Positions 40,244 through 57,500 of a stretch of 64,000 bases of DNA are shown in pieces (position 1 is the first letter of the stretch; every line of letters begins with the position of its first letter). The notes below the pieces were generated by a model. That model was not told where the DNA came from and ran no database searches. It saw only the letters and a list, made by a program, of their open reading frames with translations. Source of the DNA: Dictyostelium discoideum (lineage: Eukaryota). The position numbers and the translations under genes are program-made. The stretch lies in contig CM000155.2 in NCBI GenBank assembly GCA_000004695.1, positions 1,472,001 through 1,536,000 of the forward strand. The letters run 5' to 3'.

Positions 40244-41479
40244 CTAATTGTGAAGAATATTTATATCTTTAATTGATTTTGCAAATTTAATATTTTGAGC
40301 TTTAATTTTATAATATTCTTCAAATGCTTGTTTTGGACCATATTCACCACTATATAAAACTTTTAAAAACTTATCAGTTGTTTGTGCACCTCCAACTTCT
40401 AATTGATGAAACAATGAAAGATCAAAAAATATTGTTTTAGAGTAATTTAAATATTTTTCATATATTGACATTGATTCATCCAATAGAAATGGTTTATATT
40501 TGATTGTTACATATGGTTCTAAATATTGAAAAACGTCTAAATGAGTTATTTTATTATCACCATTGCTTATAAATAAACTTTTTAATCTTATTAATTTTGA
40601 ATAAACATTCTCAATTTGACCAGGTGAAAATGGAACTCCAACAACGGTATCATTATTATCAAATTTCTTTTCTTTTATTGATTTCATTAAACTAATGGAT
40701 GAATCATGATACTTTTGTAAATGATTTAGCCAATCTACCATAAAATCATCGATATCTATTTTAACAAATTGTTCAACTATTTTATGATCAACAAATTCAA
40801 ACATATGATCTAAAAGAAAAATATCATTTTCAACTGGCAATGAAATTTCACCATTGTGAATTAAAATTGAAGGGAAAAAAGCTAAAAAACAATATTCATC
40901 TGGATCATAACAAGATATTTTATATGCATCATTTAATGATATATCTTGTTCCCATCCATTTGATTCAATAATAATTGTACCAGTTGGTTTAAAAATATCT
41001 TGATCAATTTCTTTACCACCCTTTATGCATTCTAAAACATTATTTACTAATTCTTCAATATAAACTTTACAATCATCTATTAATTGTAAAAATGATTCTT
41101 TTACTTTTTCACTATAAATACTATCAATTAAATTTATAATACTCTCATTTTGTGATTTAATTTTTGAAAATAATTTACTTTCAACTGATGGTGATTTAAT
41201 AAAATCAGATTTAAATGATAAATCAAGTAATCTTTCTGGTGGGTTCAATGATTGAAATAATTCTCTACATTGCATATAATGACTTTTTTCACCATTTTCA
41301 ATTTCTATTAAATAATCTTGAAATAAAAATTTAGTTTTTGAACACAATGATTGTTTACATAATTTATTTAATTTCTCTATTAAAGTTTTTGCATTTCTTA
41401 AATTATATTTATTTTCAACTGTAATAGATTTTTCTTTAGGTTCATGAATTACAATTCTTTCTTCATAATCTGTAAACAT
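40244..41479 (-). CDS. Hypothetical protein, 411 aa, single exon, no recognised domain
   Basis: Long ORF with ordinary, not low-complexity, composition. It lies between the Tdd-4-like element and the Harbinger-like island. AT-rich flanks with poly(A/T). Confidence 0.45.
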   Translation of the reverse strand: MFTDYEERIVIHEPKEKSITVENKYNLRNAKTLIEKLNKLCKQSLCSKTKFLFQDYLIEIENGEKSHYMQCRELFQSLNPPERLLDLSFKSDFIKSPSVESKLFSKIKSQNESIINLIDSIYSEKVKESFLQLIDDCKVYIEELVNNVLECIKGGKEIDQDIFKPTGTIIIESNGWEQDISLNDAYKISCYDPDEYCFLAFFPSILIHNGEISLPVENDIFLLDHMFEFVDHKIVEQFVKIDIDDFMVDWLNHLQKYHDSSISLMKSIKEKKFDNNDTVVGVPFSPGQIENVYSKLIRLKSLFISNGDNKITHLDVFQYLEPYVTIKYKPFLLDESMSIYEKYLNYSKTIFFDLSLFHQLEVGGAQTTDKFLKVLYSGEYGPKQAFEEYYKIKAQNIKFAKSIKDINILHN

Positions 41480-42012
41480 TTTAAAAATAACTTTATAAAA
41501 AAAAATAAAAAAATAAAAATAAAAAATAAATCAGACAATTAATTACATGGAATTAAAATTATTTATAATAAATGGGTTTGAATATTTACCTTTTATTTAC
41601 AATGTAATAATGTGAATGGATTTCTTTTGACTTATTTATCACCATATAAATTTTAAAATCTTGTGGAATTAGTTGATTTAAAATTTAAAAAGATTAAGAA
41701 AAAAAAAAAATTTTTGTTTTTTGTATTTTATTTTTTTTTTTTTTTTAATTTTTTTTTTGATTTTCAAAAAAATATCAGATTTTTTTTTTTTTTTAGTGAA
41801 AAAACCTTAATAAAAAAAAAACATAAAATTAATTATAAAAAAAAAAAAAAAAATGAAAAAAAAGGCCCAACTTTTTTTTGATAAAAAAAAAAATAAAAAA
41901 ATAAAAAAATAAAAAAAATAAGTTTAAAAAAATGATCAAATCGTATTTTTTATTTTAGTGTTAATTTTTTTTTTTTTTTTAGTGTTAATTTTTTTTTTTG
42001 GTGAAAATAAAA

Positions 42013-43207
42013 TTATTCCAATTCCTGATCGGATTGTCTTGATCTTTTCCTGGGGAGATTATCGTCAATGGTTTCAACTTCTTGGACTAATTGTTTGACA
42101 GAATCACATAGTGATTTTAAGATATCAATCACTTGTTGGTTATGATCACCTTGCTTTTGGAAAATTTCCAAATGTTTTTGTTTAAGATCATTGCTCTTTT
42201 TCGTAACCTTGAGGAGCTCATTCTTTACCAAGAATGTATTTTGCAGTGTTTCATGGACCTTTGTCTTAACACTGGTATGGTGTTGTTTATCTACCAAGTT
42301 GCTGGTTCTAATTTCGTTTTGGATTTGGTTTTATGTTAGTTGGCTACCAGAAGTTGCAAGCACTCTAGTAAACTCGATTTGGCTCTGGAGCTTGATAACC
42401 AATTTTGAAATTGGATAGAACACTCTTTTTAGTTGTGGAATGAGAGCTTTGACTTGATTGCTTACAATTTGATGTTTTGCTACCATAATTTTCTTCTTGA
42501 ATTCTATCTTCATCTTCGGTTTCCTCATCAGTCTCTTCATCAACAGTTTGCGATGGAGTTAATTTTGGCGTGTTACCATTTTCAGATGGAGTTGGGTTTG
42601 GTATAGATGCAGTGGTTTTGAGTCCATGTTGATTAATATACATAACTATATTATTGTACTTGTTCATCAATACTTGACTTTTGCCACTGAATTTGTTTCT
42701 GGTGAATAGATTGACTAGATGGGATCTGAACTTTTTAGGGCAGTCATTGTTTAACTTGTGGACATAAACAACCATTTTGTGAAATTCTTCATAACATTTG
42801 TAATGTTGATCTTTTTCTGAGTCATCTGTAACCCTTGTAAGATAATTTCTGAGTTCTGGACTGAATAGGAAATTTAATGATGTGATATTATTTGCAAAAT
42901 GCTCCACAATGAAATCGTTGGCCTTCTTGTAAGTTACACGTTTCCCACCATTTTTATTTTCAGCTTTTTGGCGAATACAATATGAATAGAAAAGAACGTC
43001 ATCATTGTCTTTGATTAGATCATAGTTTTCTTTAAGAAATGAGCACTCTAGAAATGGTTCAAGTAAACCATCCACTGTGCTTGGGGTTGCGTCAACAAAT
43101 CCAACCATTCCTTTCTGAGAATTAATATATCTGGTGTTAGTTGCAAATGAAAGTGTGACAGTATCAGTAGTGTTGATGTATATTGGGTCCGAATCATCAA
43201 CTGACAA
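42013..43207 (-). CDS. Hypothetical gene in a GC-richer island, possibly transposon-associated. ORFs 42365..43207 and 42013..42297 may belong together; they are separated by a frameshift or an intron
   Basis: Locally lower A+T than the flanks. The 280-aa ORF starts at a TTG in the track. The upstream frame (43048..43284) is offset by one. No domain was recognised by eye. Confidence 0.3.
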
Positions 43208-44007
43208 TGATTCATAATTCTCTGCTTTTTATTGTAGTTTAATGAATTTTGCGATTTTGTAAAATGTAAGTTTGCCAACTTCATATCTTATATTTGGAAT
43301 TTGGTAATGCAAATAATTATCATTCATTTTTTTATTTATTTTTTTTTTTTAAATACATTTTTTTTTAGTCGTTTGAGGTTTGACAAAATATTGATGAACC
43401 ATATTTAATTTTTAAATAAAATATCATTAACAACCAAATATTTAAATATTTCCATTATTATAAAATCTTATTGGGCTAACAACTAAAAAATCTTTATGTG
43501 GTAACATCTAAAAAAATCTTTAATAATTAAATATTCTATTAACTAAAATCATTTCAGTATAACAGCTAAAAAATCTAGTTATTGTGAAAAATTAAAAAAT
43601 AAAAAAATAAAAAAATAAAAAAATAATAAAAAAAAAATAAATTTTTTTTTTTTTTTTTATATTATTTTTTTTTATAGATAAAAAACCTAAAATGGAAAAT
43701 CATTTAATAAATAAAAAAAAAAAAATCATAACATTATTTAAAATAATAAAAACTATACTCAGTTGTGTAGGAATTTTTTGTACATTTAAAAATAATTTTA
43801 TAGGTAATTCAATAGATTTTTTATATGACGATTCTATTAATAATTTAAATCGAGATTTATATATTTTTGATCCTACAGCACTAAACAAATACTTATATAG
43901 GAATAAAACCAATTGGAATTATAGACAAAAAAAAGAAACAAAACAATGTAAAAAAAAAAAACTCTGTTGTCAAAATTGATGACCGTTGTCAGTTAGATAC
44001 TCAACAG

Positions 44008-44856
44008 ATGTCAATGGTCAAAAGAATTGTTAGACCAATTTTTATGAAAAAATATACAAAGTCAAGGTTATATTGCGAATCTATTATCGATTTCCTATTA
44101 TATTATTTAATTGTAAGTAAAAAAAAAAAAAGAAATTATAATTTAAATTTTTTTTTTCCATTTCTATTTCTATTTTTTAAAATTATTATTATTTTTATTA
44201 TTACTATTTAAAAAAAAAAGTACTAATTAAAAATAATATAATTTCAGAATGGAGGAAAGTTAATTGTCCACTCAAACACTTTTAAATGTTCAATTTCAAC
44301 ACTCTCTAGATATAAAAGAGATGGAATTCCTATAATGTGTGAAGCTTTAAGATTTGTAATTCCAACATGGAAACCTGAACCGAATACCATTTATGCAATT
44401 GATTGCACTACTTCTCCAATATGTAGACCCCACCCGGGACAAAGAGAGTTTTATAGGGGAGACCAAGGTTATCACTTTTTAGGTGTTCAATTAATAGTTG
44501 ACATTACCAAATTTTTAATTGTTGATGTAATAATTGGCAAGGGTAGAAATAATGATTCAGGTTTGGCAAATATTTCAGGTACAACAGATTTGGTGTTAAA
44601 AAATAAATTGGTCATTCTTGCAGATAGAGGATACTCTAAAAATAAATTCGTTACTCCCAATAGTCTTGATTTAATAGAAGGTGAACCAACAGAAGAACTT
44701 GTAACCGAATTTAGAGATTTTGTTTCCAAAAATAGATCATGTGTCGAAAATGCAAACCAAAGATTCAAGTCTCTGGATTTATTCAACAAACCTATAAAAT
44801 CTCGTCCAATTTCTCATGCCTATACAACTTTGTTGGGGGTATATTGCAAATATTAA
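44008..44856 (+). CDS. PIF/Harbinger-type DDE nuclease (DDE_Tnp_4) transposase fragment, 2 exons (44008..44112, 44248..44856), about 238 aa
   Basis: Exon 1 ends ...LLYYLI|GTAAGT. The intron ends TTTCAG. Exon 2 has TIYAIDCTTSPICRP (first D region), LVILADRGYS (second D) and NRSCVENANQRFKSLDLF (the E/R..VE..F..LK..F motif). The product is shorter than full Harbinger transposases, which have an N-terminal HTH. It is therefore likely truncated or missing exons. Confidence 0.5.
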
Positions 44857-45591
44857 TTTAATATATAATTCTCAAAAACATGTAATATCTAGTTTCGAAG
44901 AAAAAGTGAGACTTATTCATGGGAATTATCTCTAAAAAAAAAAAATAAAATAAAATAAAATAAACACTGCTCCAGTAAAAAACAAATATCTTTTTTATTT
45001 TTCTATTTTTATTTTTATAACTAAAAAAAAAGAAATAACCGACAATTTAGCACAAAATTTTTTTTTTTTTTTTTTTTTTCGCTAAAATAAATTGTGAAAA
45101 AACCTTATTTTAGATATTAATTAATTATTAATAATTAATAATAATATTAATTATTAATTATTAATTATTTCCAAAGCAAAGAAAATACTTTCATTATTTT
45201 AAGTTCTCTCTTTTATTATAACTTTTTTTTTTTTTTTTTACCTGTGATCAGACCTTCAAGGAATGTCCTTGTGTCTTTTCGGCGGTGTTTGTTTTTTTTT
45301 TTTTTTTTTTTTTTTTTTACCTGTGATCAGACCTTCAAGGAATGTCCTTGTGTCTTTTCGGCGGTGTTTGTTAAACGGTTTTATTTTTATTATTCAATTG
45401 TATTAAATTTTTTAAACTATATTATATCTTTCATTATAACTGAACATATATTAAAATTTATATTTTTTTTTTTTTTTTTTTGATATAAATAAACTATTGT
45501 AGTATACAATTAGTATGTTATTTTTATTTATTTATTTTAGGTTTTTTAGTTTTTGTGAATTTAAAATGGTATGTTATTTTAGATTAGGTAA

Positions 45592-46745
45592 TTAATAATT
45601 AATTGGTGGTGTAATTGTTGGAATTGGTTCATTTGTGTTTATGCTCCATTCTTTTTTAAATTTTTTGATGGTTTCAGACCATTGGGTTTCTTTTTGAGTT
45701 TTTGTGAAGTTGTTTTTAATTGAGTATTGGTTAAAGTTTGATAACGTTCTTGAATATTCCAATCTTATTAGCTTGTGCCATTTTGATTTTAATATATCAT
45801 AATCTAGTGTTGTGTTGTTTATTTGGTTGTTCCAATTATCAATTGATTGAGTTATATTGATGTCAAATAATGATTTGCATAACCATATCCATATTTGGTG
45901 AATAACTAATGAGATTATGTTCCAATATGCATGTGTTCTGACTAGATCAAGATTTGTGTTTATATAATTCCAGTTGAACCTGTATTTTTTATATTGTGCG
46001 TTTTCTGCAAAATGAAAATTAATATTGATAGTTGGATCTGGTTTAAATGCTTTGTTGTTTGTTTGTGGTTTATAAATGAGTGTGTATAATTTTGTTGTTT
46101 GGTTTTTTGTTAGTGACCAGTTTTTGTTTCCATTGCAATTTTTATATATAAAATATTTTAATTTGTCGTGGTTTATGAAGTTGATTGTGTGCTGACAATT
46201 GAAAAACAAATGACCATAGGGATCATTATTCATTTCATTGTTGCAAATGGGGCAAACTTTGTTGTGTAGATGATTAATCGGAAGACATCTAGCATGGAAT
46301 CTTTGCATTGTATCACGGCCTTTTGGATCTTTTAATTTTTGAATTTTGACAAATAGTTGGTCGTATGTGTATTTCCATAATAGTTGTATTGATTGTTGGT
46401 GCGAAGTAAGAAGTAGATCTGAATATTTCTTGCCAATATAGTCTTTTGATTTACATTGGTGATTGTTGAGTATTGTCGAGTAGATTTCTTTGAGTGTTGG
46501 TGGTAGTGGAATATTATTTGTGTTTAATGTTTGAGAGGTTTGATTTTTTATTAATATTGGTTGTAGGATTTGAACTTTATCTTTTAGATGTCCAATTTGA
46601 GTTGCATAGTTTTCCCATTCTTTTTTGATTTTTATAAGGTATGGAGAAGAGATTGATTTGTTGATGATTTGATCCATCCAACTTATCATGTATATTGAAT
46701 TATTTGCAGATTTATGCATTTGTAAAAATCTGTTGTATATCCAAA

Positions 46746-46747
<2 letters not shown>
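45592..46747 (-). mobile_element. 5'-truncated, diverged TRE3-like non-LTR retrotransposon fragment (3' part of ORF2); its 3' UTR/tail may extend to about 45230
   Basis: The ORF of 375 aa parallels the C-terminal 350 aa of the adjacent full-length elements: KLKDPKGRDTMQRFHARCLPINHLHNKVCPICNNEMNNDPYGHLFFNC versus KIKDPKTRDTMFRFHARCLPINYLHNKQCPLCKEDMSKDPYGHLFFSC, and HAYWNIISLVIHQIWIWLC versus FAYRNLMALILHNIWIWIC. Amino-acid identity is only about 40-50%. It abuts the poly(A) tail of the next element. Confidence 0.55.
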
Positions 46748-46821
<74 letters not shown>

Positions 46822-46918
46822 TGGATTAACAAGATTGATATATGTCCATCTGTGTTAATACGAGTTTTATTTAATATTTATTTAAAGGCTTATCATTTAA
46901 GCTGAAGGGTTATTTTAA

Positions 46919-49825
46919 TCATATGAATTGATCAAAAGATATAATATTTGGGAGAGATGATTCTGGAATACAATAGTAATTAGCTGTAGTTTTTCTTAGC
47001 TTGATCGTTGAAGTGAGAAGGATCTTAGGATCTTTGAAGTTATTATGGTCTTTTGCTGATAAGTTTTTCAGATCTTTTGCTTTTTTGATGTATTCTAGAG
47101 TGGCCAATTTGTGCCATTTCTTTAGAAGGGAGCTGTATGATAGTGATTCATCTGTTAAAGGATCTTCACTGTATATTTGATTGCAAATCCAAATCCAAAT
47201 GTTGTGGAGGATAAGGGCCATTAGGTTTCTATATGCGAATGATCTGGTTAGATCATAGTCTATTGCTTTATAGTTCCATTCAAAGTATTCTTTGTGGAAT
47301 CTGTGGTTGGCGTAATCTGCATTCACTTCTTGATCTTTTTTGGCTGTCGGTGATAATTTTGGAGTTATTCTACTAATGAAATTGTTATTTTGCCTAATTC
47401 TTGTATGGTGCCAGTTTTTACCTTTGCCTGTGGTAATATAGATGAAATTTTTGAGTTTATTTATTTTTATGAATTGTTTTGTTTTCTTGCATGAGAAGAA
47501 CAGGTGACCGTATGGGTCTTTGCTCATATCTTCTTTGCAGAGTGGGCATTGTTTGTTGTGAAGGTAGTTTATTGGAAGGCATCTGGCATGGAATCTAAAC
47601 ATTGTATCTCTTGTTTTAGGGTCTTTTATCTTCAGTATGTTGTTGAAGAGTTGATTATAGCTGTAGCCTCTTAAGTTTAGAGATGATTGGAATTCCGTTT
47701 TAGGGATGGTTGGATTTTGGTCTTGAATTGTGGTATACCATTCTGCCAGTGAAAGTGGTTGTCCATTTTCGTTTTTTATGGATGTGAGATTATTGTTGAA
47801 GATTGCTTTTTTTATTCTTATTTTGTTCCATTCGTCTAAGTTTTCTTTTAGGTATCTGGATGTGAATTTGTTTTTTTGGATCTGATATTCCCAGCTTTTG
47901 TGATGAGATGAGTTTGTTTGTTTGGTTTCTAGTGCTAGGATGAACTGGTTTATGATCCAAAGTTTCTGCGCCAGTTGTCTCAATTCTATATTCCAAATGT
48001 TCCAGCCCCCTACTTTTAGTGGGTATCTTGCTCTTTTGGTTCTCATTAAATTAATAACTTGAAATCCACTAGCATTTTTGTTGTTTGGTGCCGATAAAAA
48101 CCATTCGACTAGTTTATTGATTTGGTTTAATTCCTCTTCCTTAAAGTTCTCTACATATGAATAGTAGGTTAATTTAGAGAGTGCGAATGCTTTGAGGATG
48201 TTGGTTTTGGTTTTGATTGTTGAGTCAGTGGTTTTCCATAGTACTAAGGATGATCTTATTGTGTTTAATATTTCTGGCATTTTTCTTGTTATCCCTTTGC
48301 CTGTGAAGAAGTATCCCAAGTATCTTTCTGGATTTGTAGATATTGGAATTCTTTGGTTGGTATTGTCTGGGTTGCCTATAAGAATTGATGAAGATTTGTC
48401 GATGTTTAGTTTTGAGGAAGTGGCTTTGCAAAATGAATTGAAGTGTTGTAGTACTAATTCAAGTTGTTGAGAGTCTGGGACCATTGAAGCCGAGTCGTCT
48501 GCAAAGCTTTGGAATTTCTCTCTGTGGTTGCTGTTGTTTAGAGGAAGGCCAGTAATTCGGTCATCTTGTAAAATTTTTCTAGCTAAAGCCTCTATTACAA
48601 GGACGAACAGGGTGGGTGATAGTGGATCTCCTTGTTTAACTCCTCTTTTGATCTCAAAGGGTATAGTAGTTCTACCATTAATTTCAATTCTTGCTTCAGA
48701 TTTGGTGAGTAGATTCATTATCAGGTTGATTATATTGGTTGGAATGTTGATGTGTTGTAGTGATCTAAGTATTGAACCGTGTGAGATCGAGTCAAAAGCT
48801 TTTTCGAAATCATATAGTGTAATTATTCCGTTAATTCTTTTATCATTACAATAGTTGATTAATTCGTTCATTGATATGATATTATCTAGAATGAATCTGC
48901 CTGGTACGAAACCTTTTTGATTGTGGTTGATCACTTTCGTTAGTATTGGGATTATTCTATTGTTTATTAGCTTTGAGTGGATTTTATATATACAATTAGC
49001 CAGTGTAATTGGTCTTCTGTTTTTGATTAGTTCGGGGTCTCCCTTTTTAGGTATCGTGATAATGAGGCCTTCTTTGTAATTTTTGCTAATTAGATGAGGA
49101 TTTCTTAGAGTGTCGTTGAATGCTGAGGCCAGTATTGGAGCTAGTTTTTCTTTGTGTGTTATGTAGAATAAGTTTGGAATTCCATCTGGACCTGGAGATT
49201 TGTGTGGGTTCAGTTGTTTTATTACTTCTAGGATCTCTTGTGAGGTGAATTCATTTTCAAGGTTGTCCCATGTTGAGTCCCTGGTCACTGTCCAATTTTC
49301 CAACATTTCGTAATGAGATGGTGGGTCATCTTCTTTGTAGTCATAAAGATTTGAGTAATATTTTACGTATTCTTCTTCGATCAATTCCTGTTTGTTAATT
49401 GTTCTACCTTGTGCATCTTTTACTGCGTTGATGGTGAAATCATTGTGTCTTTTCTTGATTCTCGCGGAGATGTACTTGAGTGAGGTTTCTTCGCAATAGT
49501 TGTTCAATTCTTGTTTAAGTTGTTCTTCTCTTTTTTTAGATTCATTTATTGCTGAAAGGGTTGCGAAGGCTTGGTCTTTAAATTCTGTCTCTAGTAGGGA
49601 GATTAGATTTTTGATGTTTGCCTTATTGTTGTAGTCGTTTTGTTTTTGAAATTCGGTGTATAGTTGTTTTATTTTGTTCAGTAAGCTGTTGAGTTGAGAG
49701 AAGGAAATAGAGTTATGGTTGGCTGACAGCTCCCTTGAATAATCGTTAAGTAGGAAGTCTATTTTCTTAAGCATTATGCTTGAGAGGATTGAGGATTTTT
49801 TTAATCTCCATCTGCGCTTGTTCAT
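46919..49825 (-). CDS. TRE3-like ORF2, reverse-transcriptase portion (968 aa; separated from the EN portion by a frameshift or stop in this copy)
   Basis: RT box QSFADDSASM (the YXDD-equivalent FADD) and the upstream conserved PKKGDPELIKNRRPITLANCIYKI... motifs. A C-terminal Cys/His region, CPLCKEDMSKDPYGHLFFSC, is present. Confidence 0.75.
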   Translation of the reverse strand: MNKRRWRLKKSSILSSIMLKKIDFLLNDYSRELSANHNSISFSQLNSLLNKIKQLYTEFQKQNDYNNKANIKNLISLLETEFKDQAFATLSAINESKKREEQLKQELNNYCEETSLKYISARIKKRHNDFTINAVKDAQGRTINKQELIEEEYVKYYSNLYDYKEDDPPSHYEMLENWTVTRDSTWDNLENEFTSQEILEVIKQLNPHKSPGPDGIPNLFYITHKEKLAPILASAFNDTLRNPHLISKNYKEGLIITIPKKGDPELIKNRRPITLANCIYKIHSKLINNRIIPILTKVINHNQKGFVPGRFILDNIISMNELINYCNDKRINGIITLYDFEKAFDSISHGSILRSLQHINIPTNIINLIMNLLTKSEARIEINGRTTIPFEIKRGVKQGDPLSPTLFVLVIEALARKILQDDRITGLPLNNSNHREKFQSFADDSASMVPDSQQLELVLQHFNSFCKATSSKLNIDKSSSILIGNPDNTNQRIPISTNPERYLGYFFTGKGITRKMPEILNTIRSSLVLWKTTDSTIKTKTNILKAFALSKLTYYSYVENFKEEELNQINKLVEWFLSAPNNKNASGFQVINLMRTKRARYPLKVGGWNIWNIELRQLAQKLWIINQFILALETKQTNSSHHKSWEYQIQKNKFTSRYLKENLDEWNKIRIKKAIFNNNLTSIKNENGQPLSLAEWYTTIQDQNPTIPKTEFQSSLNLRGYSYNQLFNNILKIKDPKTRDTMFRFHARCLPINYLHNKQCPLCKEDMSKDPYGHLFFSCKKTKQFIKINKLKNFIYITTGKGKNWHHTRIRQNNNFISRITPKLSPTAKKDQEVNADYANHRFHKEYFEWNYKAIDYDLTRSFAYRNLMALILHNIWIWICNQIYSEDPLTDESLSYSSLLKKWHKLATLEYIKKAKDLKNLSAKDHNNFKDPKILLTSTIKLRKTTANYYCIPESSLPNIISFDQFI

Positions 49826-49957
49826 CTGTATGTTGGGTAGAGTGAAAGTGGTTGATAGGAAGTTGTGATCTGATAGAGGTATGTCGTTAATTTTTGGGGG
49901 GATTAGGTTCCTTAGGTATAATTGGCTGTAGTTGATTAAGCTATTGTTAAGGTATAT

Positions 49958-50623
49958 TCAGTCTAGTCTCCTTTCCAAGATTCTTGTGAGGTTATTGTTT
50001 GTGTTGTGTATCGTTCTTGAGAAGGTGGGTCTTTTATTTAGTTGGTCCATATCCATTAGGTTATTTGAAATTCTGATGGCTTCGATTACTGTGGCCATCT
50101 CATCTGGGGATTGTGTTGTCAAGTTGCCTTGGTCATCATTTGATGTGTGATTGTCATTGAAGTCTAAACAGTTGAAGTCTCCTGCTATGATGTCGATGTT
50201 TTTATTAGGGTTAGACGTTAGGTTGTGGTATTGGTTGTTGAAGTGTTTGTTTAGTGTTGAAGCTAGTGTTTTTCTTTTATCAGGTTGGGCCGGGGCGTAT
50301 ATGGCCAAGATTCTCGTTGTGGTATCTTTTATTAGAATGTCTGATATTATTAGTCTACCTTCTATTATGAATATTGGTGAGAGTTTTATGTTTTGGTTGT
50401 TGTGGTTTAGTATTCCTATTCCGTTGCCTCTGTTGGTTGCGCTAATGATGGAGCCAGGGAATAGCTGGTGTGCTTGTGTTGCGTCGGCGTTGAGTTCATT
50501 GACTATGGTTAGTGCCAATGAGTTTGGGGGGGATTGGGATTTGATAAAGTCTGTTTTGTTTTTGAAGGAGGTGTCAGTGCCCCAACCTCTGACATTCCAT
50601 TGGTTGATTTTGATTACTACCAT
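49958..50623 (-). CDS. TRE3-like ORF2, apurinic-endonuclease-like N-terminal portion (221 aa, copy 1)
   Basis: The N-terminal WNVRGW and ...IIAGDFNC... motifs are typical of L1-type APE endonucleases. The same frame continues into the RT in copy 2. Confidence 0.65.
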   Translation of the reverse strand: MVVIKINQWNVRGWGTDTSFKNKTDFIKSQSPPNSLALTIVNELNADATQAHQLFPGSIISATNRGNGIGILNHNNQNIKLSPIFIIEGRLIISDILIKDTTTRILAIYAPAQPDKRKTLASTLNKHFNNQYHNLTSNPNKNIDIIAGDFNCLDFNDNHTSNDDQGNLTTQSPDEMATVIEAIRISNNLMDMDQLNKRPTFSRTIHNTNNNLTRILERRLD

Positions 50624-51882
50624 TATGAGATGATATCGATCTCCTCTTGGGAGTCGTATAGCTGCGGTTTGGATGGTGAAGGGTAGATACTCTCTATGAA
50701 GCTCTCAATGATTCCTTTACTTTCTTTTTTGACAGGTGTCTTAGGGGTGGATGGGATGTAAGGGTTGCTTCTATTTATTGTTGGTGAGAGTTGGGTGACT
50801 TCATTGTTTGAGTGGATTTCCTCGTTCTTGCGTTTATGTGATGGAGGGATGTTTAGTGTCTTCTCTCTGTTTTCCGAGGATGAATGGATGTTATTGCTCG
50901 TTTTGTTGGCATTGTCTTTTTGGATGGCGTTGGATGTTGTGGTAGTGGTTGTGGTGGGTTTGACAGATTGAGATTCTGCTGGGTTTTTGGGGGGAAGAGG
51001 TTGAGATGACTTTTTTGCTTGGGCTTTTTTCTCTTGGGGGTGATTGTTTTTCAGACTGATTGTTTGCTGGGGGTTGTTTGTTTGTTGTTGTGGTTTTGGT
51101 TGAGAGGATTTGATTGCTATCCTGTTTTGGATGTTGGGAGGATCATCTGTCATCTCATCTTCTAATGGTTCTTCCGTGTTGTTTGACTTCTCTACTTTCT
51201 TGTTTTTCTTTGNTGAGGAGTAGGTTTTGGTGGCCGTTCTGATGGTAAAGTTTGCGATTTCTGTAATGTGTTGGCCAGATTTCATTTGATCGCCTATTTT
51301 GCATTCTATTAGACCGAATACTATGAGGTGGTCGGTGGAGTATATAGTATTGTATATTGCATAGGGTATTTCTTCTGCAAAGGCAGTTTTGATGAGGGCG
51401 TCCACTATTCCTGCCTTTTCTCTGGGAATTCTTACTCTTCCTGTGAGGACGTGGAAGTCTCTACTGGAGGTGATGAAGGTTCCCAATTTGCTTCTATCTC
51501 TAATGATATTTAGGAGAGATTGTTCGTTTTTAATCATCAGGTGGATCATTTTTCTAGTTCCTTTGCCTATGTATATCTTGTCGAATGGGATATCGTAGTT
51601 TGAGAGTGTTTTTCTCATTTCTTCTAACCCCTTGAGATCCATTTTGGGGAATTCGAGTGTAATTGGGTAGAATCCGTTGTTCTTCTCATAGGTTGAGAGC
51701 GCAGTCATGTTCAATATGGTCTCGCAGTATTTGGAGATGTCTTTGAGGCCTATTGATAGTTTGGGGTAGGTCTCCTTTATCTCTGCTGTTTTTGTGGAGA
51801 ATTCCTTAATGAAGTTCTCCGATGCCTCGTCCATATGGGTGGAGGGGTTGGCCATTTTAGCCGCGTCTGCGTAGGAATTCAT
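50623..51882 (-). CDS. TRE3-like ORF1 protein (419 aa, copy 1)
   Basis: First ORF of the element. It has a basic Ser/Thr/Pro-rich C-terminal half. It is nearly identical to 55937..57190. Confidence 0.7.
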   Translation of the reverse strand: MNSYADAAKMANPSTHMDEASENFIKEFSTKTAEIKETYPKLSIGLKDISKYCETILNMTALSTYEKNNGFYPITLEFPKMDLKGLEEMRKTLSNYDIPFDKIYIGKGTRKMIHLMIKNEQSLLNIIRDRSKLGTFITSSRDFHVLTGRVRIPREKAGIVDALIKTAFAEEIPYAIYNTIYSTDHLIVFGLIECKIGDQMKSGQHITEIANFTIRTATKTYSSXKKNKKVEKSNNTEEPLEDEMTDDPPNIQNRIAIKSSQPKPQQQTNNPQQTISLKNNHPQEKKAQAKKSSQPLPPKNPAESQSVKPTTTTTTTSNAIQKDNANKTSNNIHSSSENREKTLNIPPSHKRKNEEIHSNNEVTQLSPTINRSNPYIPSTPKTPVKKESKGIIESFIESIYPSPSKPQLYDSQEEIDIIS

Positions 51883-52082
51883 CTCGATGGGATTCCTTTG
51901 AATCGGCGATTTGGTATGTTAGATCTGTAGATCGTGGTGGATTGGTGATTTTTTTTGAAAGATTGGTTAAAATTGACCGAGATTAAAGATAGAAAAGGAT
52001 GAATTACTTTTCACGTGTATCTTGTATCCTCTTGATCGCGGTACGGTTTTTTTTTCCAAATCTTTTGAGCAACTTGTCGTAG

Positions 52083-52127
<45 letters not shown>

Positions 52128-52224
52128 TGGATTAACAAGATTGATATATGTCCATCTGTGTTAATACGAGTTTTATTTAATATTTATTTAAAGGCTTATC
52201 ATTTAAGCTGAAGGGTTATTTTAA

Positions 52225-54801
52225 TCATATGAATTGATCAAAAGATATAATATTTGGGAGAGATGATTCTGGAATACAATAGTAATTAGCTGTTGTTTTT
52301 CTTAGCTTGATCGTTGAAGTGAGAAGGATCTTAGGATCTTTGAAGTTATTATGGTCTTTTGCTGATAAGTTTTTCAGATCTTTTGCTTTTTTGATGTATT
52401 CTAGAGTGGCCAATTTGTGCCATTTCTTTAGAAGGGAGCTGTATGATAGTGATTCATCTGTTAAAGGATCTTCACTGTATATTTGATTGCAAATCCAAAT
52501 CCAAATGTTGTGGAGGATAAGGGCCATTAGGTTTCTATATGCGAATGATCTGGTTAGATCATAGTCTATTGCTTTATAGTTCCATTCAAAGTATTCTTTG
52601 TGGAATCTGTGGTTGGCGTAATCTGCATTCACTTCTTGATCTTTTTTGGCTGTCGGTGATAATTTTGGAGTTATTCTATTAATGAAATTGTTATTTTGCC
52701 TAATTCTTGTATGGTGCCAGTTTTTACCTTTGCCTGTGGTAATATAGATGAAATTTTTGAGTTTATTTATTTTTATGAATTGTTTTGTTTTCTTGCATGA
52801 GAAGAACAGGTGACCGTATGGGTCTTTGCTCATATCTTCTTTGCAGAGTGGGCATTGTTTGTTGTGAAGGTAGTTTATTGGAAGGCATCTGGCATGGAAT
52901 CTAAACATTGTGTCTCTTGTTTTAGGGTCTTTTATCTTCAGTATGTTGTTGAAGAGTTGATTATAGCTGTAGCCTCTTAAGTTTAGAGATGATTGGAATT
53001 CCGTTTTAGGGATGGTTGGATTTTGGTCTTGAATTGTGGTATACCATTCTGCCAGTGAAAGTGGTTGTCCATTTTCGTTTTTTATGGATGTGAGATTATT
53101 GTTGAAGATTGCTTTTTTTATTCTTATTTTGTTCCATTCATCTAAGTTTTCTTTTAGGTATCTGGATGTGAATTTGTTTTTTTGGATCTGATATTCCCAG
53201 CTTTTGTGATGAGATGAGTTTGTTTGTTTGGTTTCTAGTGCTAGGATGAACTGGTTTATGATCCAAAGTTTCTGCGCCAGTTGTCTCAATTCTATATTCC
53301 AAATGTTCCAGCCCCCTACTTTTAGTGGGTATCTTGCTCTTTTGGTTCTCATTAAATTAATAACTTGAAATCCACTAGCATTTTTGTTGTTTGGTGCCGA
53401 TAAAAACCATTCGACTAATTTATTGATTTGGTTTAATTCCTCTTCCTTAAAGTTCTCTACATATGAATAGTAGGTTAATTTAGAGAGTGCGAATGCTTTG
53501 AGGATGTTGGTTTTGGTTTTGATTGTTGAGTCAGTGGTTTTCCATAGTACTAAGGATGATCTTATTGTGTTTAATATTTCTGGTATTTTTCTTGTTATCC
53601 CTTTGCCTGTGAAGAAGTATCCCAAGTATCTTTCTGGATTTGTAGATATTGGTATTCTTTGGTTGGTATTGTCTGGGTTGCCTATAAGAATTGATGAAGA
53701 TTTGTCGATGTTTAGTTTTGAGGAAGTGGCTTTGCAAAATGAATTGAAGTGTTGTAGTACTAATTCAAGTTGTTGAGAGTCTGGGACCATTGAAGCCGAG
53801 TCGTCTGCAAAGCTTTGGAATTTCTCTCTGTGGTCGCTGTTGTTTAGAGGAAGGCCAGTAATTCGGTCATCTTGTAAAATTTTTCTAGCTAAAGCCTCTA
53901 TTACAAGGACGAACAGGGTGGGTGATAGTGGATCTCCTTGTTTGACTCCTCTTTTGATCTCAAAGGGTATAGTAGTTCTACCATTAATTTCAATTCTTGC
54001 TTCAGATTTGGTGAGTAGATTCATTATCAGGTTGATTATATTGGTTGGAATGTTGATGTGTTGTAGTGATCTGAGTATTGAACCGTGTGAAATCGAGTCA
54101 AAAGCTTTTTCGAAATCATATAGTGTAATTATTCCGTTAATTCTTTTATCATTACAATAGTTGATTAATTCGTTCATTGATATGATATTATCTATAATGA
54201 ATCTGCCTGGTACGAAACCTTTTTGATTGTGGTTGATCACTTTCGTTAGTATTGGGATTATTCTATTGTTTATTAGTTTTGAGTGGATTTTATATATACA
54301 GTTAGCCAGTGTAATTGGTCTTCTGTTTTTGATTAGTTCGGGGTCTCCCTTTTTAGGTATCGTGATAATGAGGCCTTCTTTGTAATTTTTGCTAATTAGA
54401 TGAGGATTTCTTAGAGTGTCGTTGAATGCTGAGGCCAGTATTGGAGCTAGTTTTTCTTTGTGTGTTATGTAGAATAAGTTTGGAATTCCATCTGGGCCTG
54501 GAGATTTGTGTGGGTTCAATTGTTTTATTACTTCTAGGATCTCTTGTGTTGTGAATTCATTTTCAAGGTTGTCCCATGTTGAGTCCCTGGTCACTGTCCA
54601 ATTTTCCAACATTTCATAATGAGATGGTGCGTCATCTTCTTTGTAGTCATAAAGATTTGAGTAATATTTTACGTATTCTTCTTCGATCAATTCCTGTTTG
54701 TTGATTGTTCTACCTTGTGCATCTTTTACTGCGTTGATGGTGAAATCATTGTGTCTTTTCTTGATTCTCGCGGAGATGTACTTGAGTGAAGTTCTTCGCA
54801 A
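52225..54801 (-). CDS. TRE3-like ORF2 RT portion, copy 2 (858 aa from the first Met; the frame is interrupted relative to copy 1 near 54750..54800)
   Basis: Near-identical to 46919..49825. Confidence 0.7.
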   Translation of the reverse strand: MRRTSLKYISARIKKRHNDFTINAVKDAQGRTINKQELIEEEYVKYYSNLYDYKEDDAPSHYEMLENWTVTRDSTWDNLENEFTTQEILEVIKQLNPHKSPGPDGIPNLFYITHKEKLAPILASAFNDTLRNPHLISKNYKEGLIITIPKKGDPELIKNRRPITLANCIYKIHSKLINNRIIPILTKVINHNQKGFVPGRFIIDNIISMNELINYCNDKRINGIITLYDFEKAFDSISHGSILRSLQHINIPTNIINLIMNLLTKSEARIEINGRTTIPFEIKRGVKQGDPLSPTLFVLVIEALARKILQDDRITGLPLNNSDHREKFQSFADDSASMVPDSQQLELVLQHFNSFCKATSSKLNIDKSSSILIGNPDNTNQRIPISTNPERYLGYFFTGKGITRKIPEILNTIRSSLVLWKTTDSTIKTKTNILKAFALSKLTYYSYVENFKEEELNQINKLVEWFLSAPNNKNASGFQVINLMRTKRARYPLKVGGWNIWNIELRQLAQKLWIINQFILALETKQTNSSHHKSWEYQIQKNKFTSRYLKENLDEWNKIRIKKAIFNNNLTSIKNENGQPLSLAEWYTTIQDQNPTIPKTEFQSSLNLRGYSYNQLFNNILKIKDPKTRDTMFRFHARCLPINYLHNKQCPLCKEDMSKDPYGHLFFSCKKTKQFIKINKLKNFIYITTGKGKNWHHTRIRQNNNFINRITPKLSPTAKKDQEVNADYANHRFHKEYFEWNYKAIDYDLTRSFAYRNLMALILHNIWIWICNQIYSEDPLTDESLSYSSLLKKWHKLATLEYIKKAKDLKNLSAKDHNNFKDPKILLTSTIKLRKTTANYYCIPESSLPNIISFDQFI

Positions 54802-55828
54802 TAGTGTTCATGTTCAATTCTTGTTTAAGTTGTTCTTCTCTTTTTTTAGATTCATTTATTGCTGAAAGGGTTGCGAAGGCTTGGTCTTTAAATTCTGTCT
54901 CTAGTAGGGAGATTAGATTTTTGATGTTTGCCTTATTGTTGTAGTCATTTTGTTTTTGAAATTCTGTGTATAGTTGTTTTATTTTGTTTAGTAAGCTGTT
55001 GAGTTGAGAGAAGGAAATAGAGTTATGGTTGGATGACAGCTCCCTTGAATAATCGTTAAGTAGGAAGTCTATTTTCTTAAGCATTATGCTTGAGAGGATT
55101 GAGGATTTTTTTAATCTCCATCTGCGCTTGTTCATCTGTATGTTGGGTAGAGTGAAGGTGGTTGATAGGAAGTTGTGATCTGATAGAGGTATGTCATTAA
55201 TTTTTGGGGGGATTAGGTTCCTTAAGTATAATTGGCTGTAGTTGATTATGCTATTGTTAAGGTATATTCTGTCTAGTCTCCTTTCCAAGATTCTTGTGAG
55301 GTTATTGTTTGTGTTGTGTATCGTTCTTGAGAAGGTGGGTCTTTTATTTAGTTGGTCCATATCCATTAGGTTATTTGAAATTCTGATGGCTTCGATTACT
55401 GTGGCCATCTCATCTGGGGATTGTGTTGTCAAGTTGCCTTGGTCATCATTTGATGTGTGATTGTCATTGAAGTCTAAACAATTGAAGTCGCCTGCTATGA
55501 TGTCGATGTTTTTTTTAGGGTTAGACGTTAGGTTGTGGTATTGGTTGTTGAAGTGTTTGTTTAGTGTTGAAGCTAGTATTTTTCTTTTATCAGGTTGGGC
55601 CGGGGCGTATATGGCCAAGATTCTCGTTGTGGTATCTTTTATTAGAATGTCTGATATTATTAGTCTACCTTCTATTATGAATATTGGTGAGAGTTTTATG
55701 TTTTGGTTGTTGTGGTTTAGTATTCCTATTCCGTTGCCTCTGTTGGTTGCGCTAATGATGGAGCCAGGAAATAGCTGGTGTGCTTGTGTTGCGTCGGCGT
55801 TGAGTTCATTGACTATGGTTAGTGCCAA
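54746..55828 (-). CDS. TRE3-like ORF2 EN portion plus EN-RT linker, copy 2 (360 aa)
   Basis: This frame reads continuously through the point where copy 1 has its stop (...NLTRILERRLD|RIYLNNSI...). This shows the two copies carry different disabling indels. Confidence 0.65.
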   Translation of the reverse strand: MALTIVNELNADATQAHQLFPGSIISATNRGNGIGILNHNNQNIKLSPIFIIEGRLIISDILIKDTTTRILAIYAPAQPDKRKILASTLNKHFNNQYHNLTSNPKKNIDIIAGDFNCLDFNDNHTSNDDQGNLTTQSPDEMATVIEAIRISNNLMDMDQLNKRPTFSRTIHNTNNNLTRILERRLDRIYLNNSIINYSQLYLRNLIPPKINDIPLSDHNFLSTTFTLPNIQMNKRRWRLKKSSILSSIMLKKIDFLLNDYSRELSSNHNSISFSQLNSLLNKIKQLYTEFQKQNDYNNKANIKNLISLLETEFKDQAFATLSAINESKKREEQLKQELNMNTIAKNFTQVHLRENQEKTQ

Positions 55829-55936
55829 TGAGTTTGGGGGGGATTGGGATTTGATAAAGTCTGTTTTGTTTTTGAAGGAGGTGTCAGTGCCCCAACCTCT
55901 GACATTCCATTGGTTGATTTTGATCGATTACTACCA

Positions 55937-57190
55937 TTATGAGATGATATCGATCTCCTCTTGGGAGTCGTTTAGCTGCGGTTTGGATGGTGAAGGGTAG
56001 ATACTCTCTATGAAGCTCTCAATGATTCCTTTCCTTTCTTTATTGACAGGTGTCTTAGGGGTGGATGGGATGTAAGGGTTGCTTCTGTTTATTGTTGGTG
56101 AGAGTTGGGTGACCTCGTTGTTTGAGTGGATTTCCTCGTTCTTGCGTTTATGTGATGGAGGGATGTTTGGTGTCTTCTCTCTGTTTTCCGAGGATGAATG
56201 GATGTTAGTGCTCGTTTTGTTGGCATTGTCTTTTTGGATGGCGTTGGATGTTGTGGTAGTGGTTGTGGTGGGTTTGACAGATTGAGATTCTGCTTGGTTT
56301 TTGGGGGGAAGAGGTTGAGAGGATTTTTTTGATTGGGCTCTTTTCTCTTGGGTTGATTGTTTATCAGACTTATTGTTTGCTGGGTTGTTTGTTTGTTGTT
56401 GTGGTTTTGGTTGAGAGGATTTGATTGCTATCCTGTTTTGGATGTTGGGAGGATCATCTGTCATCTCATCTTCTAATGGTTCTTCCGTGTTGTTTGACTC
56501 TACTTTCTTATTTTTCTTTTGTGAGGAGTAGGTTTTGGTGGCCGTTCTGATGGTAAAGTTGGCGATTTCTGTATTGTGTTGGCCAGATTTCATTTGATCG
56601 CCTATTTTGCATTCTATTAGACCGAATACTAGGAGGTGGTCGGTGGAGTATATAGTATGGTATATTGCATAGGGTATTTCTTCTGCAAAGGCAGTTTTGA
56701 TGAGGGCATCCACTATTCCTGCCTTTTCTCTTGGAATTCTTACTCTTCCTGTGAGGACGTGGTAGTCTCTACTGGAGGTGATGAAGGTTCCCAATTTGCT
56801 TCTATCTCTAATGATATTTAGGAGAGATTGTTCGTTTTTAATCATCAGGTGGATCGTTTTTCTAGTTCCTTTGCCTATGTATATCTTGTCGATTGGGATA
56901 TCGTAGTTTGAGAGTGTTTTTCTCATTTCTTCTAACCCCATGAGATCCATTTTGGGGAATTCGAGTGTAATTGGGTAGAATCCGTTGTTTTTCTCGTAGG
57001 TTGAGAGAGCAGTCATGTTCAATATGGTCTCGCAGTATTTGGAGATGTCTTTGAGGCCTATTGATAATTTGGGGTAGGTCTCCTTTATCTCTGCTGTTTT
57101 TGTGGAGAATTCCTTAATGAAGTTCTCTGATGCCTCGTCCATATGGGTGGAGGGGTTGGCCATTTTAGCCGCGTCTGCGTAGGAATTCAT
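55937..57190 (-). CDS. TRE3-like ORF1 protein, copy 2 (417 aa)
   Basis: Near-identical to 50623..51882. Confidence 0.7.
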   Translation of the reverse strand: MNSYADAAKMANPSTHMDEASENFIKEFSTKTAEIKETYPKLSIGLKDISKYCETILNMTALSTYEKNNGFYPITLEFPKMDLMGLEEMRKTLSNYDIPIDKIYIGKGTRKTIHLMIKNEQSLLNIIRDRSKLGTFITSSRDYHVLTGRVRIPREKAGIVDALIKTAFAEEIPYAIYHTIYSTDHLLVFGLIECKIGDQMKSGQHNTEIANFTIRTATKTYSSQKKNKKVESNNTEEPLEDEMTDDPPNIQNRIAIKSSQPKPQQQTNNPANNKSDKQSTQEKRAQSKKSSQPLPPKNQAESQSVKPTTTTTTTSNAIQKDNANKTSTNIHSSSENREKTPNIPPSHKRKNEEIHSNNEVTQLSPTINRSNPYIPSTPKTPVNKERKGIIESFIESIYPSPSKPQLNDSQEEIDIIS

Positions 57191-57427: not shown

Positions 57428-57500
57428 TGGAGAAGAAGGGTATCGATCCCTTTACCTCTCGCATGCTAAGCGAGCGCTCTACCATCTGAGCTACATCCCC
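57428..57500 (-). tRNA. tRNA-Ala (anticodon AGC)
   Basis: The minus strand reads GGGGATG TA GCTC AGATGGTA GAGC G CTCGC TTAGCAT GCGAG AGGTA AAGGG ATCGATA CCCTT CTTCTCC A. The A box is TAGCTCAGATGG. The anticodon stem-loop is CTCGC-TTAGCAT-GCGAG. The ATCGATA T-loop occurs in eukaryotic tRNA-Ala genes. There is one mismatch (6:67) in the acceptor stem. No CCA is encoded. Confidence 0.75.

Follow-up and report, generated by a model that had tools for sequence, protein, structure and literature searches.

A 64,000-nt stretch of Dictyostelium discoideum chromosome 6 (the window; element coordinates given below are window positions) contains a plus-strand open reading frame (ORF), 44335 to 44856, which bears the motifs AIDCTT, LADRGYS, and VENANQRFK and is opposed by a gene on the minus strand. 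The question raised by this locus is whether the two genes are parts of a transposon, a domesticated host gene pair, or a fragment of bacterial origin; an initial annotation had considered an undescribed Harbinger/PIF family, a domesticated HARBI1-like gene, or a horizontally acquired fragment. According to the analysis described here, the segment from 41796 to 45109 is very probably a copy, decayed and no longer mobile, of a cut-and-paste element of the IS5/PIF/Harbinger superfamily, whose low-copy family belongs to the D. discoideum species complex. Its anatomy is considered to be of the PIF/Harbinger type because terminal inverted repeats (TIRs), a 3-bp target site duplication (TSD), a presence/absence polymorphism, a DDE_Tnp_4 transposase, and a second ORF (ORF2) are found together.

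An intact copy and its empty site

The same divergent gene pair was found in 'Dictyostelium cf. discoideum' ACTFIZ as a unit of 3,862 bp (locus L003, 7713-11574), in which a DDE_Tnp_4 gene and the gene for P0003, a homologue of the opposing gene product, are arranged head to head. The window matches L003 over 41815-45111 only, with unrelated flanks and at a nonsyntenic locus. The suggestion that the minus-strand ORF is the second gene of the element was thus borne out, as the divergent pair travels together at this unrelated locus. L003 starts with AAGGTTTTTTCAC and ends with CTGAAAAAACCTT, exactly at the homology boundaries; these termini form TIRs of 13 bp (AAGGTTTTTTCAC/G) with one mismatch at the inner end, and AAT is present on both sides of the unit as a 3-bp TSD. 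In ACTFIY (locus L008), the element is absent, and 466 bp separate the two host genes that flank L003, which encode an amino-acid transporter and a protein of 407 aa; this empty site holds a single AAT. Without the element and one of the two AAT copies, L003 would read TGTAAAAAATAGAAAAA, as compared to TGTAAAAATAGAAAAA at L008, the two differing by one A in a run. Because L008 has the same two host genes without the element between them, the gene pair constitutes a mobile unit. Its mobility is also reflected in the unrelated flanks of the window copy and of the copies at loci L002 to L007 (described below), besides the contrast between occupied L003 and empty L008. Copies therefore exist at several loci, with the window and L003 nonsyntenic, and not as the single-copy locus of conserved synteny that had been named as the contrary outcome.

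The element ends were located by comparing copies. A search for direct and inverted repeats around the window locus found no TIR, being swamped by A/T low complexity. TAA/TTA was considered as the TSD and rejected: since TAA stands at every left end and TTA at every right end, these bases behave like a portion of the inverted repeats joined to an ATT duplication.

Base composition and annotated genes

The composition along the window agreed with the earlier observation that the segments from 42.0 to 43.3 kb and from 44.25 to 44.86 kb are less AT-rich than their surroundings. Specifically, the GC fraction was 0.33 to 0.36 at 42050-43250 and 0.30 to 0.34 at 44300-44900, compared to 0.12 to 0.15 in the spacers 41450-42050, 43400-43850, and 44900-45200. 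However, the idea of a special GC island had to be abandoned: because the remaining ORFs of the window span GC fractions of 0.22 to 0.42, the two GC-richer blocks are coding sequence, displaying the usual exon/spacer contrast of the D. discoideum genome, and no foreign block.

The DDE gene is annotated as DDB_G0292368 and the opposing gene as DDB_G0292366 (301 aa). These AX4 gene models are truncated readings of transposon pseudogenes. The minus-strand stretch 42013-43207, previously taken as one ORF, is split between two ORFs (42365-43207 and 42013-42297) that do not share a frame and represents a disrupted gene. The lesions of both genes, listed in the following two sections, were mapped base by base against L003 and L002.

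The transposase gene

The DDE_Tnp_4 identity assigned earlier to the plus-strand ORF was confirmed by Pfam, whose model PF13359 matched this ORF, a part of exon 2 of a spliced gene, with E=1.5e-11 and 44.6 bits (cut-off, 24.8), and matched the full-length L003 transposase with E=7.4e-12. The catalytic residues are retained in the window copy as the D of AIDCTT, the D of LADRGY, and the E of VENANQRFK. The gene is composed as follows.

43692-44112, plus strand: transposase exon 1; the annotated start is an internal ATG at 44008, and the L003 ORF is continuous here
44113-44247, plus strand: spliceosomal intron GTAAGT..CAG; splicing reproduces the annotated protein exactly
44248-44935, plus strand: transposase exon 2 with the DDE_Tnp_4 core, supported by Pfam, tblastn, and sequence comparison
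43927-43934: one extra A in this run; approximately 80 codons, counted from the ATG at 43692, are thereby out of frame
After 44839: 2-bp deletion, by which a stop codon at 44854-44856 replaces that at 44933-44935 and the last 29 residues are lost

Joining 44008-44112 to 44248-44856 across the intron gives a 237-aa product that is identical over its full length (100%) to DDB_G0292368 of AX4. The final 31 residues of the transposase were recovered by tblastn in another frame at 44840-44932, and the upstream ORF 43692-43979 is its frameshifted N terminus, as judged from L003, where a single continuous ORF is present. The L003 transposase comprises 368 aa and has one intron at the same position as that of the window; the intron is approximately 320 bp longer in L003 (9041-8567) than in the window, reflecting either a deletion in the window or an insertion in L003. 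The initial annotation had described the ORF as short and devoid of an N-terminal helix-turn-helix (HTH). On the latter point, no Pfam HTH_Tnp_4 match was obtained for the Dictyostelium transposase, although its VHSNTFKCSISTLSRYKRDGIP segment aligns to the HTH_Tnp_4-bearing part of the related protein P0002. The shortness, in turn, results from the two frameshifts and the intron, and the N-terminal region is not absent, because exon 1 and the frameshifted upstream ORF supply it.

No PDB sequence matched the transposase. In addition to DDE_Tnp_4, the Pfam model DDE_Tnp_1 matched the window transposase, and together with weak matches to the models of IS4 (E=1.3e-7) and IS5 (E=4e-4) transposases this might suggest that part of an insertion sequence of the IS5/IS4 type was acquired from prey or symbiont bacteria. 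We regard such an origin as extremely improbable, because the gene contains a spliceosomal intron, conserved between copies, and the scores lie far under the NCBIfam cut-offs (31 bits versus 115 and 20 bits versus 140). Further points against it are the Dictyostelium-like base composition, the presence of a second, eukaryote-style gene, and the nature of the closest non-Dictyostelium relative, P0002, which has an HTH_Tnp_4 plus DDE_Tnp_4 layout and shows 36% identity overall and 38 to 40% in the core. P0002 and P0009, encoded on assembled contigs of 1.2 and 2.0 kb, come from a GC-rich source and have the motifs HPGQxEYYRGDK and GKGxNNDSG in common with the Dictyostelium transposase.

ORF2, the opposing gene

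Homologues of ORF2 are the proteins P0003 to P0006, among which P0003 of ACTFIZ is uninterrupted and comprises 460 aa. Relatives of DDB_G0292366 are DDB_G0271276, taken to be located on chromosome 2, and two 'Dictyostelium cf. discoideum' ACTFIZ proteins. In the window, ORF2 is represented by a pseudogene.

42013-43326, minus strand: ORF2 pseudogene, partly annotated as DDB_G0292366, supported by the homologues P0003 to P0006, tblastn in two frames, and comparison with L003 and L002
43231-43229: nonsense mutation GAA to TAA
43189/43188: in-frame deletion of 54 bp
42368/42367: 2-bp deletion causing a frameshift
42333-42331: nonsense mutation TCA to TAA, common to the chromosome 2 copy

The ORF2 substitutions between the window and L003 number 44, 38, and 121 at codon positions 1, 2, and 3, respectively, and owing to this third-position excess it follows that ORF2 evolved as coding sequence and was a real gene. 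Its GC content at third codon positions (GC3) is 0.29 to 0.35, compared to 0.08 to 0.22 for the host ORFs of the window, and falls within the range of the retroelement ORFs. The 460-aa protein is laid out as an N-terminal mixed α/β region, an acidic S/T/Q-rich linker, a predicted long C-terminal helix, and a basic PRKRSR tail. An AlphaFold prediction based on five sequences reached a predicted local distance difference test (pLDDT) value of 34 and is therefore unusable for fold comparison; it features a long C-terminal helix (residues 355 to 444) of low confidence, with pLDDT values of about 50 to 64, followed by PRKRSR. From its position beside the transposase and from characterized Harbinger elements, the ORF2 product may be a DNA-binding or nuclear-import partner of the transposase. 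By the same analogy, the transposase would cut at the inverted repeats and reinsert at ATT.

A (TTA)n microsatellite of approximately 170 to 250 bp is located directly upstream of the ORF2 start in L003 (9790-10000) and L004; the window copy (equivalent position, approximately 43330-43380) is without it.

Ends and state of the window copy

The noncoding parts of the window copy, including its two ends, are given below.

41796-41811, no strand: left end, GTGAAAAAACCTT followed by AAT, which exactly equals the expected ATT plus AAGGTTTTTTCAC in reverse complement, hence direct and in the wrong orientation
41812-42012, minus strand: left subterminal noncoding region downstream of ORF2, conserved with L002, L003, and L004
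43327-43691, no strand: spacer between the divergent genes, with TAACANCTAAAA at 43477-43488, 43502-43513, and 43560-43571
44936-45093, no strand: right subterminal noncoding region, 95 to 96% identical to L003 and L005
45094-45109, no strand: right end, consisting of the terminal repeat GTGAAAAAACCTT (45094-45106) and the flanking ATT (45107-45109), where the homology to L003 and L005 stops

The TSD reading at the right end is derived from L003 and the L008 empty site. At the left end, the window shows GTGAAAAAACCTT plus AAT where L003 displays ATT plus AAGGTTTTTTCAG in the normal inverted orientation, and the homology to L002, L003, and L004 begins directly after this block. The 14-mer GTGAAAAAACCTTA has two exact matches in the 64 kb, which lie at the two homology boundaries as a direct repeat, because the left end corresponds exactly to the expected end in reverse complement. 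We describe the left end as a terminal repeat inverted in place together with its flanking trinucleotide. A different assignment of the left 14-mer, as the tip of the right end of a second element, was rejected, as the 200 bp leftward of it scored 39, compared to a mean of 44 for control spacers. TIRs with a TSD around the gene pair are thus present in L003 as the 13-bp repeats and AAT, whereas in the window the left repeat is in direct orientation.

The spacer between the two genes presumably holds the promoters of both. TAACANCTAAAA occurs there three times, compared to 0.29 occurrences expected in the window, with all copies confined to the spacer and conserved in L003, L004, and L005; these copies are candidate regulatory or binding sites.

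As judged from its sequence, the window copy is dead in cis and in trans: with lesions in each of its genes and its left terminal repeat reversed, it can neither move nor make either protein. An empty site for this insertion was sought via the left neighbor DDB_G0292336 and none was reached, this neighbor being an orphan.

The disruption of both genes also bears on domestication, i.e., the notion that the nuclease and its partner have been kept for a cellular function as a HARBI1/NAIF1-like host gene pair. HARBI1 and NAIF1 are vertebrate genes domesticated from a Harbinger transposon, and the locus resembles them in the fold family of the transposase and in combining a nuclease with a partner protein. 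The very low copy number in AX4 (one transposase gene and two ORF2 copies), the persistence of the catalytic D, D, and E in the window copy, and the annotation of both genes as protein-coding would fit such a history as well. It is nevertheless largely refuted and, in our estimation, highly improbable. The transposase carries two frameshifts, and ORF2 carries two nonsense codons, a frameshift, and the 54-bp deletion, so that the earlier proposal of a domesticated HARBI1-like gene fails on the pseudogene state of both genes. Moreover, and unlike HARBI1/NAIF1, the window locus and the cf. discoideum copy lack synteny, the element is polymorphic for presence and absence, and the intact relative L003 retains its TIRs and TSD. 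Among the protein search results, none came from D. citrinum, D. firmibasis, or D. dimigraforme; the collection does include proteins of these three species, as seen from the host transporter cluster.

Comparison with known elements

The likeness of the element to PIF/Harbinger transposons (PIF/Pong/mPing of plants and Harbinger3_DR of zebrafish) comprises the DDE_Tnp_4 transposase with its D-D-E triad, the combination of two genes including an accessory ORF, short TIRs (here 13 bp), a 3-bp TSD, and cut-and-paste movement, implied here by the clean empty site L008. In contrast to these elements, its copy number is very low, and no derivatives resembling miniature inverted-repeat transposable elements were seen in the sequences examined.

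Several observations weigh against this assignment. The usual target duplication of PIF/Harbinger elements is TWA, as opposed to AAT/ATT here. In terms of length, typical Harbingers have TSDs of 2 to 3 bp (PMC3627910). The TSD was deduced from a single complete copy, L003, the one seen with both ends, and from a single empty site; the DNA there is of low complexity, and the two sequences disagree by 1 nt. Transposition, likewise, was deduced from sequence comparison. All six ends examined have ATT (in window orientation) beside AAGG or CCTT, and a single trinucleotide orientation at all of them would be unexpected for independent insertions if target orientation were random. Placement in the superfamily is based on the domain match and the element anatomy. 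Finally, unlike that of PIF/Harbinger elements, the accessory ORF shows no Myb/SANT/trihelix domain that could be detected, and its relatives were found only within the D. discoideum complex. Specifically, ORF2 gave nothing in Pfam at E<=5, no match in NCBIfam, and nothing meaningful among PDB sequences, and HMMER retrieved only four proteins from 1.84 billion representatives, all from the D. discoideum complex; neither a Myb/SANT/trihelix nor another DNA-binding signature was recognized by these searches. The failure to discern a Myb/SANT motif by eye in the initial annotation is in line with this outcome; a very divergent Myb-like fold is possible. In the face of these points, the element described in the preceding sections still appears to us very probably a PIF/Harbinger-type transposon.

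Within the same host, the Tdd-4/5, DDT-A/B/S, and thug-S/T elements are likewise class II elements of low abundance. They are set apart from the window element, with its clear DDE_Tnp_4 transposase, by their published descriptions: the DNA transposons of D. discoideum are given as Tdd, DDT, and thug only, with transposases lacking significant similarity to known ones (PMC5633606), and TDD-4 and TDD-5 have been grouped with integrase-like transposases (PMC2836005). The window element has its transposase domain family in common with ISL2EU/IS4EU, Spy, Nuwa, and Pangu. ISL2EU makes 2-bp duplications and Spy makes none, as opposed to the 3 bp of the present family.

In the full-text literature, no paper was found that names these genes or links Harbinger to Dictyostelium or Amoebozoa, with Repbase and Dfam outside the scope of the search. 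The proposal of an undescribed Harbinger/PIF family is supported by the DDE_Tnp_4 match, the recurrence of the divergent gene pair, the 13-bp TIRs, the 3-bp TSD, and the empty site. The DDE domain itself is not new, because the UniProt label of the transposase protein, 'DDE Tnp4 domain-containing', already names it; the element adds a new member, of low copy number, to a known transposon superfamily, and the window contains no more than a wreck of it. DDB_G0292368, DDB_G0292366, and DDB_G0271276, listed as 'hypothetical protein' genes, can be reannotated as transposon pseudogenes, and the D. discoideum catalogue of transposable elements gains a family with a clearly classifiable transposase. 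The apparently intact copy in a wild relative offers a natural cut-and-paste system for Dictyostelium, and the family could serve to examine a Harbinger accessory protein in which no Myb domain is recognizable.

Further copies and mosaic divergence

Protein searches gave the AX4 copy number of one transposase gene and two ORF2 copies mentioned above. L002 is the ORF2 half only, located at DDB_G0271276 on D. discoideum chromosome 2; L004 is an ORF2 half amid retroelements in ACTFIZ; L005 comprises the transposase half and right end in ACTFIY; and L006 and L007 are decayed pieces in another D. discoideum strain. In L002, the ORF2 half alone is duplicated, with window positions 41812-43364 corresponding to L002 9967-11558 at 99 to 100% identity in aligned columns. 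This one-ended piece of 1.55 kb, apparently a recent copy, stops just beyond the start codon of ORF2; at the left it has a degraded repeat (ATT+AAGA..AGCAAT), and the right repeat is absent.

The identity of the window copy to L003 is uneven, amounting to 94 to 99% over 43664-45090 but to 80 to 92% over the ORF2 half, and the transposase half of the window is 94 to 99% identical to both L003 and L005. Between the window and L003, 4.3% of third codon positions differ in the transposase (369 codons compared) versus 27% in ORF2. As a host yardstick, one gene was used, the transporter gene, compared at the DNA level between ACTFIZ and ACTFIY and at the protein level for AX4. Between ACTFIZ and ACTFIY, 24% of its third positions differ, compared to 4.5% in transposase exon 2, the latter over the 177 codons available for L005. 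The transporter proteins are 96.3% identical both for AX4-ACTFIZ and for ACTFIY-ACTFIZ and 98.4% identical for AX4-ACTFIY. Because the transposase half is far more alike between species than the host gene, and the ORF2 half is not, the window copy is regarded as a mosaic, in which the ORF2 half seems to match the host split in age and the transposase half seems much younger.

This pattern would be explained if the transposase half had recently entered D. discoideum or crossed between cryptic species, by horizontal transfer or introgression, and had then recombined in the spacer with an older resident copy. Such a history, which would add to the transposon interpretation and not compete with it, is plausible, with the odds leaning somewhat the other way: the step in identity along the element, the gap between 4.3% and 27% and that between 24% and 4.5% at third positions, and the equal distance of both AX4 and ACTFIY host proteins from ACTFIZ argue for it, whereas the yardstick is a single host gene and the transposase alignments are short. 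The mosaic divergence thereby hints at an exchange of transposable elements between cryptic species. A more far-reaching scenario is tentative and rather doubtful, namely, that the family is still active in the wild D. discoideum complex, with L003 autonomous, an accessory protein that has no kinship with the Myb-like partner in other Harbingers, and a transposase half that recently crossed cryptic species and recombined with older copies.

Neighboring features of the window

On the left, the element is adjoined by DDB_G0292336 (40244-41479, minus strand, 411 aa), which has a GC3 of 0.08 and no Pfam domain. Among 5.8 billion proteins, its only other relative found is a 543-aa protein encoded on an assembled contig of 2.4 kb, and it appears to be an orphan gene.

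On the right, 45223-45380 comprises two tandem copies, 92% alike, of a 79-nt unit made up of a T run and ACCTGTGATCAGACCTTCAAGGAATGTCCTTGTGTCTTTTCGGCGGTGTTTG. L001, from another D. discoideum assembly, appears to have one copy of this unit, since two alignment blocks overlap there. Situated at the border of the adjoining non-long terminal repeat (non-LTR) retroelement, the repeat may represent one of the terminal modules of that element.

A cluster of non-LTR retrotransposon ORFs occupies 45592-57190 on the minus strand and adjoins a tRNA-Ala gene (57428-57500). The ORFs 50623-51882 and 55937-57190 have a GC3 of about 0.5 and no Pfam match, and ORF 45592-46719 resembles the C-terminal part of a 968-aa ORF. 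RVT_1 matches the ORFs 46919-49825 and 52225-54612, and by its position beside the tRNA gene the cluster presumably belongs with the tRNA-gene-targeted TRE elements of Dictyostelium, which it looks like.

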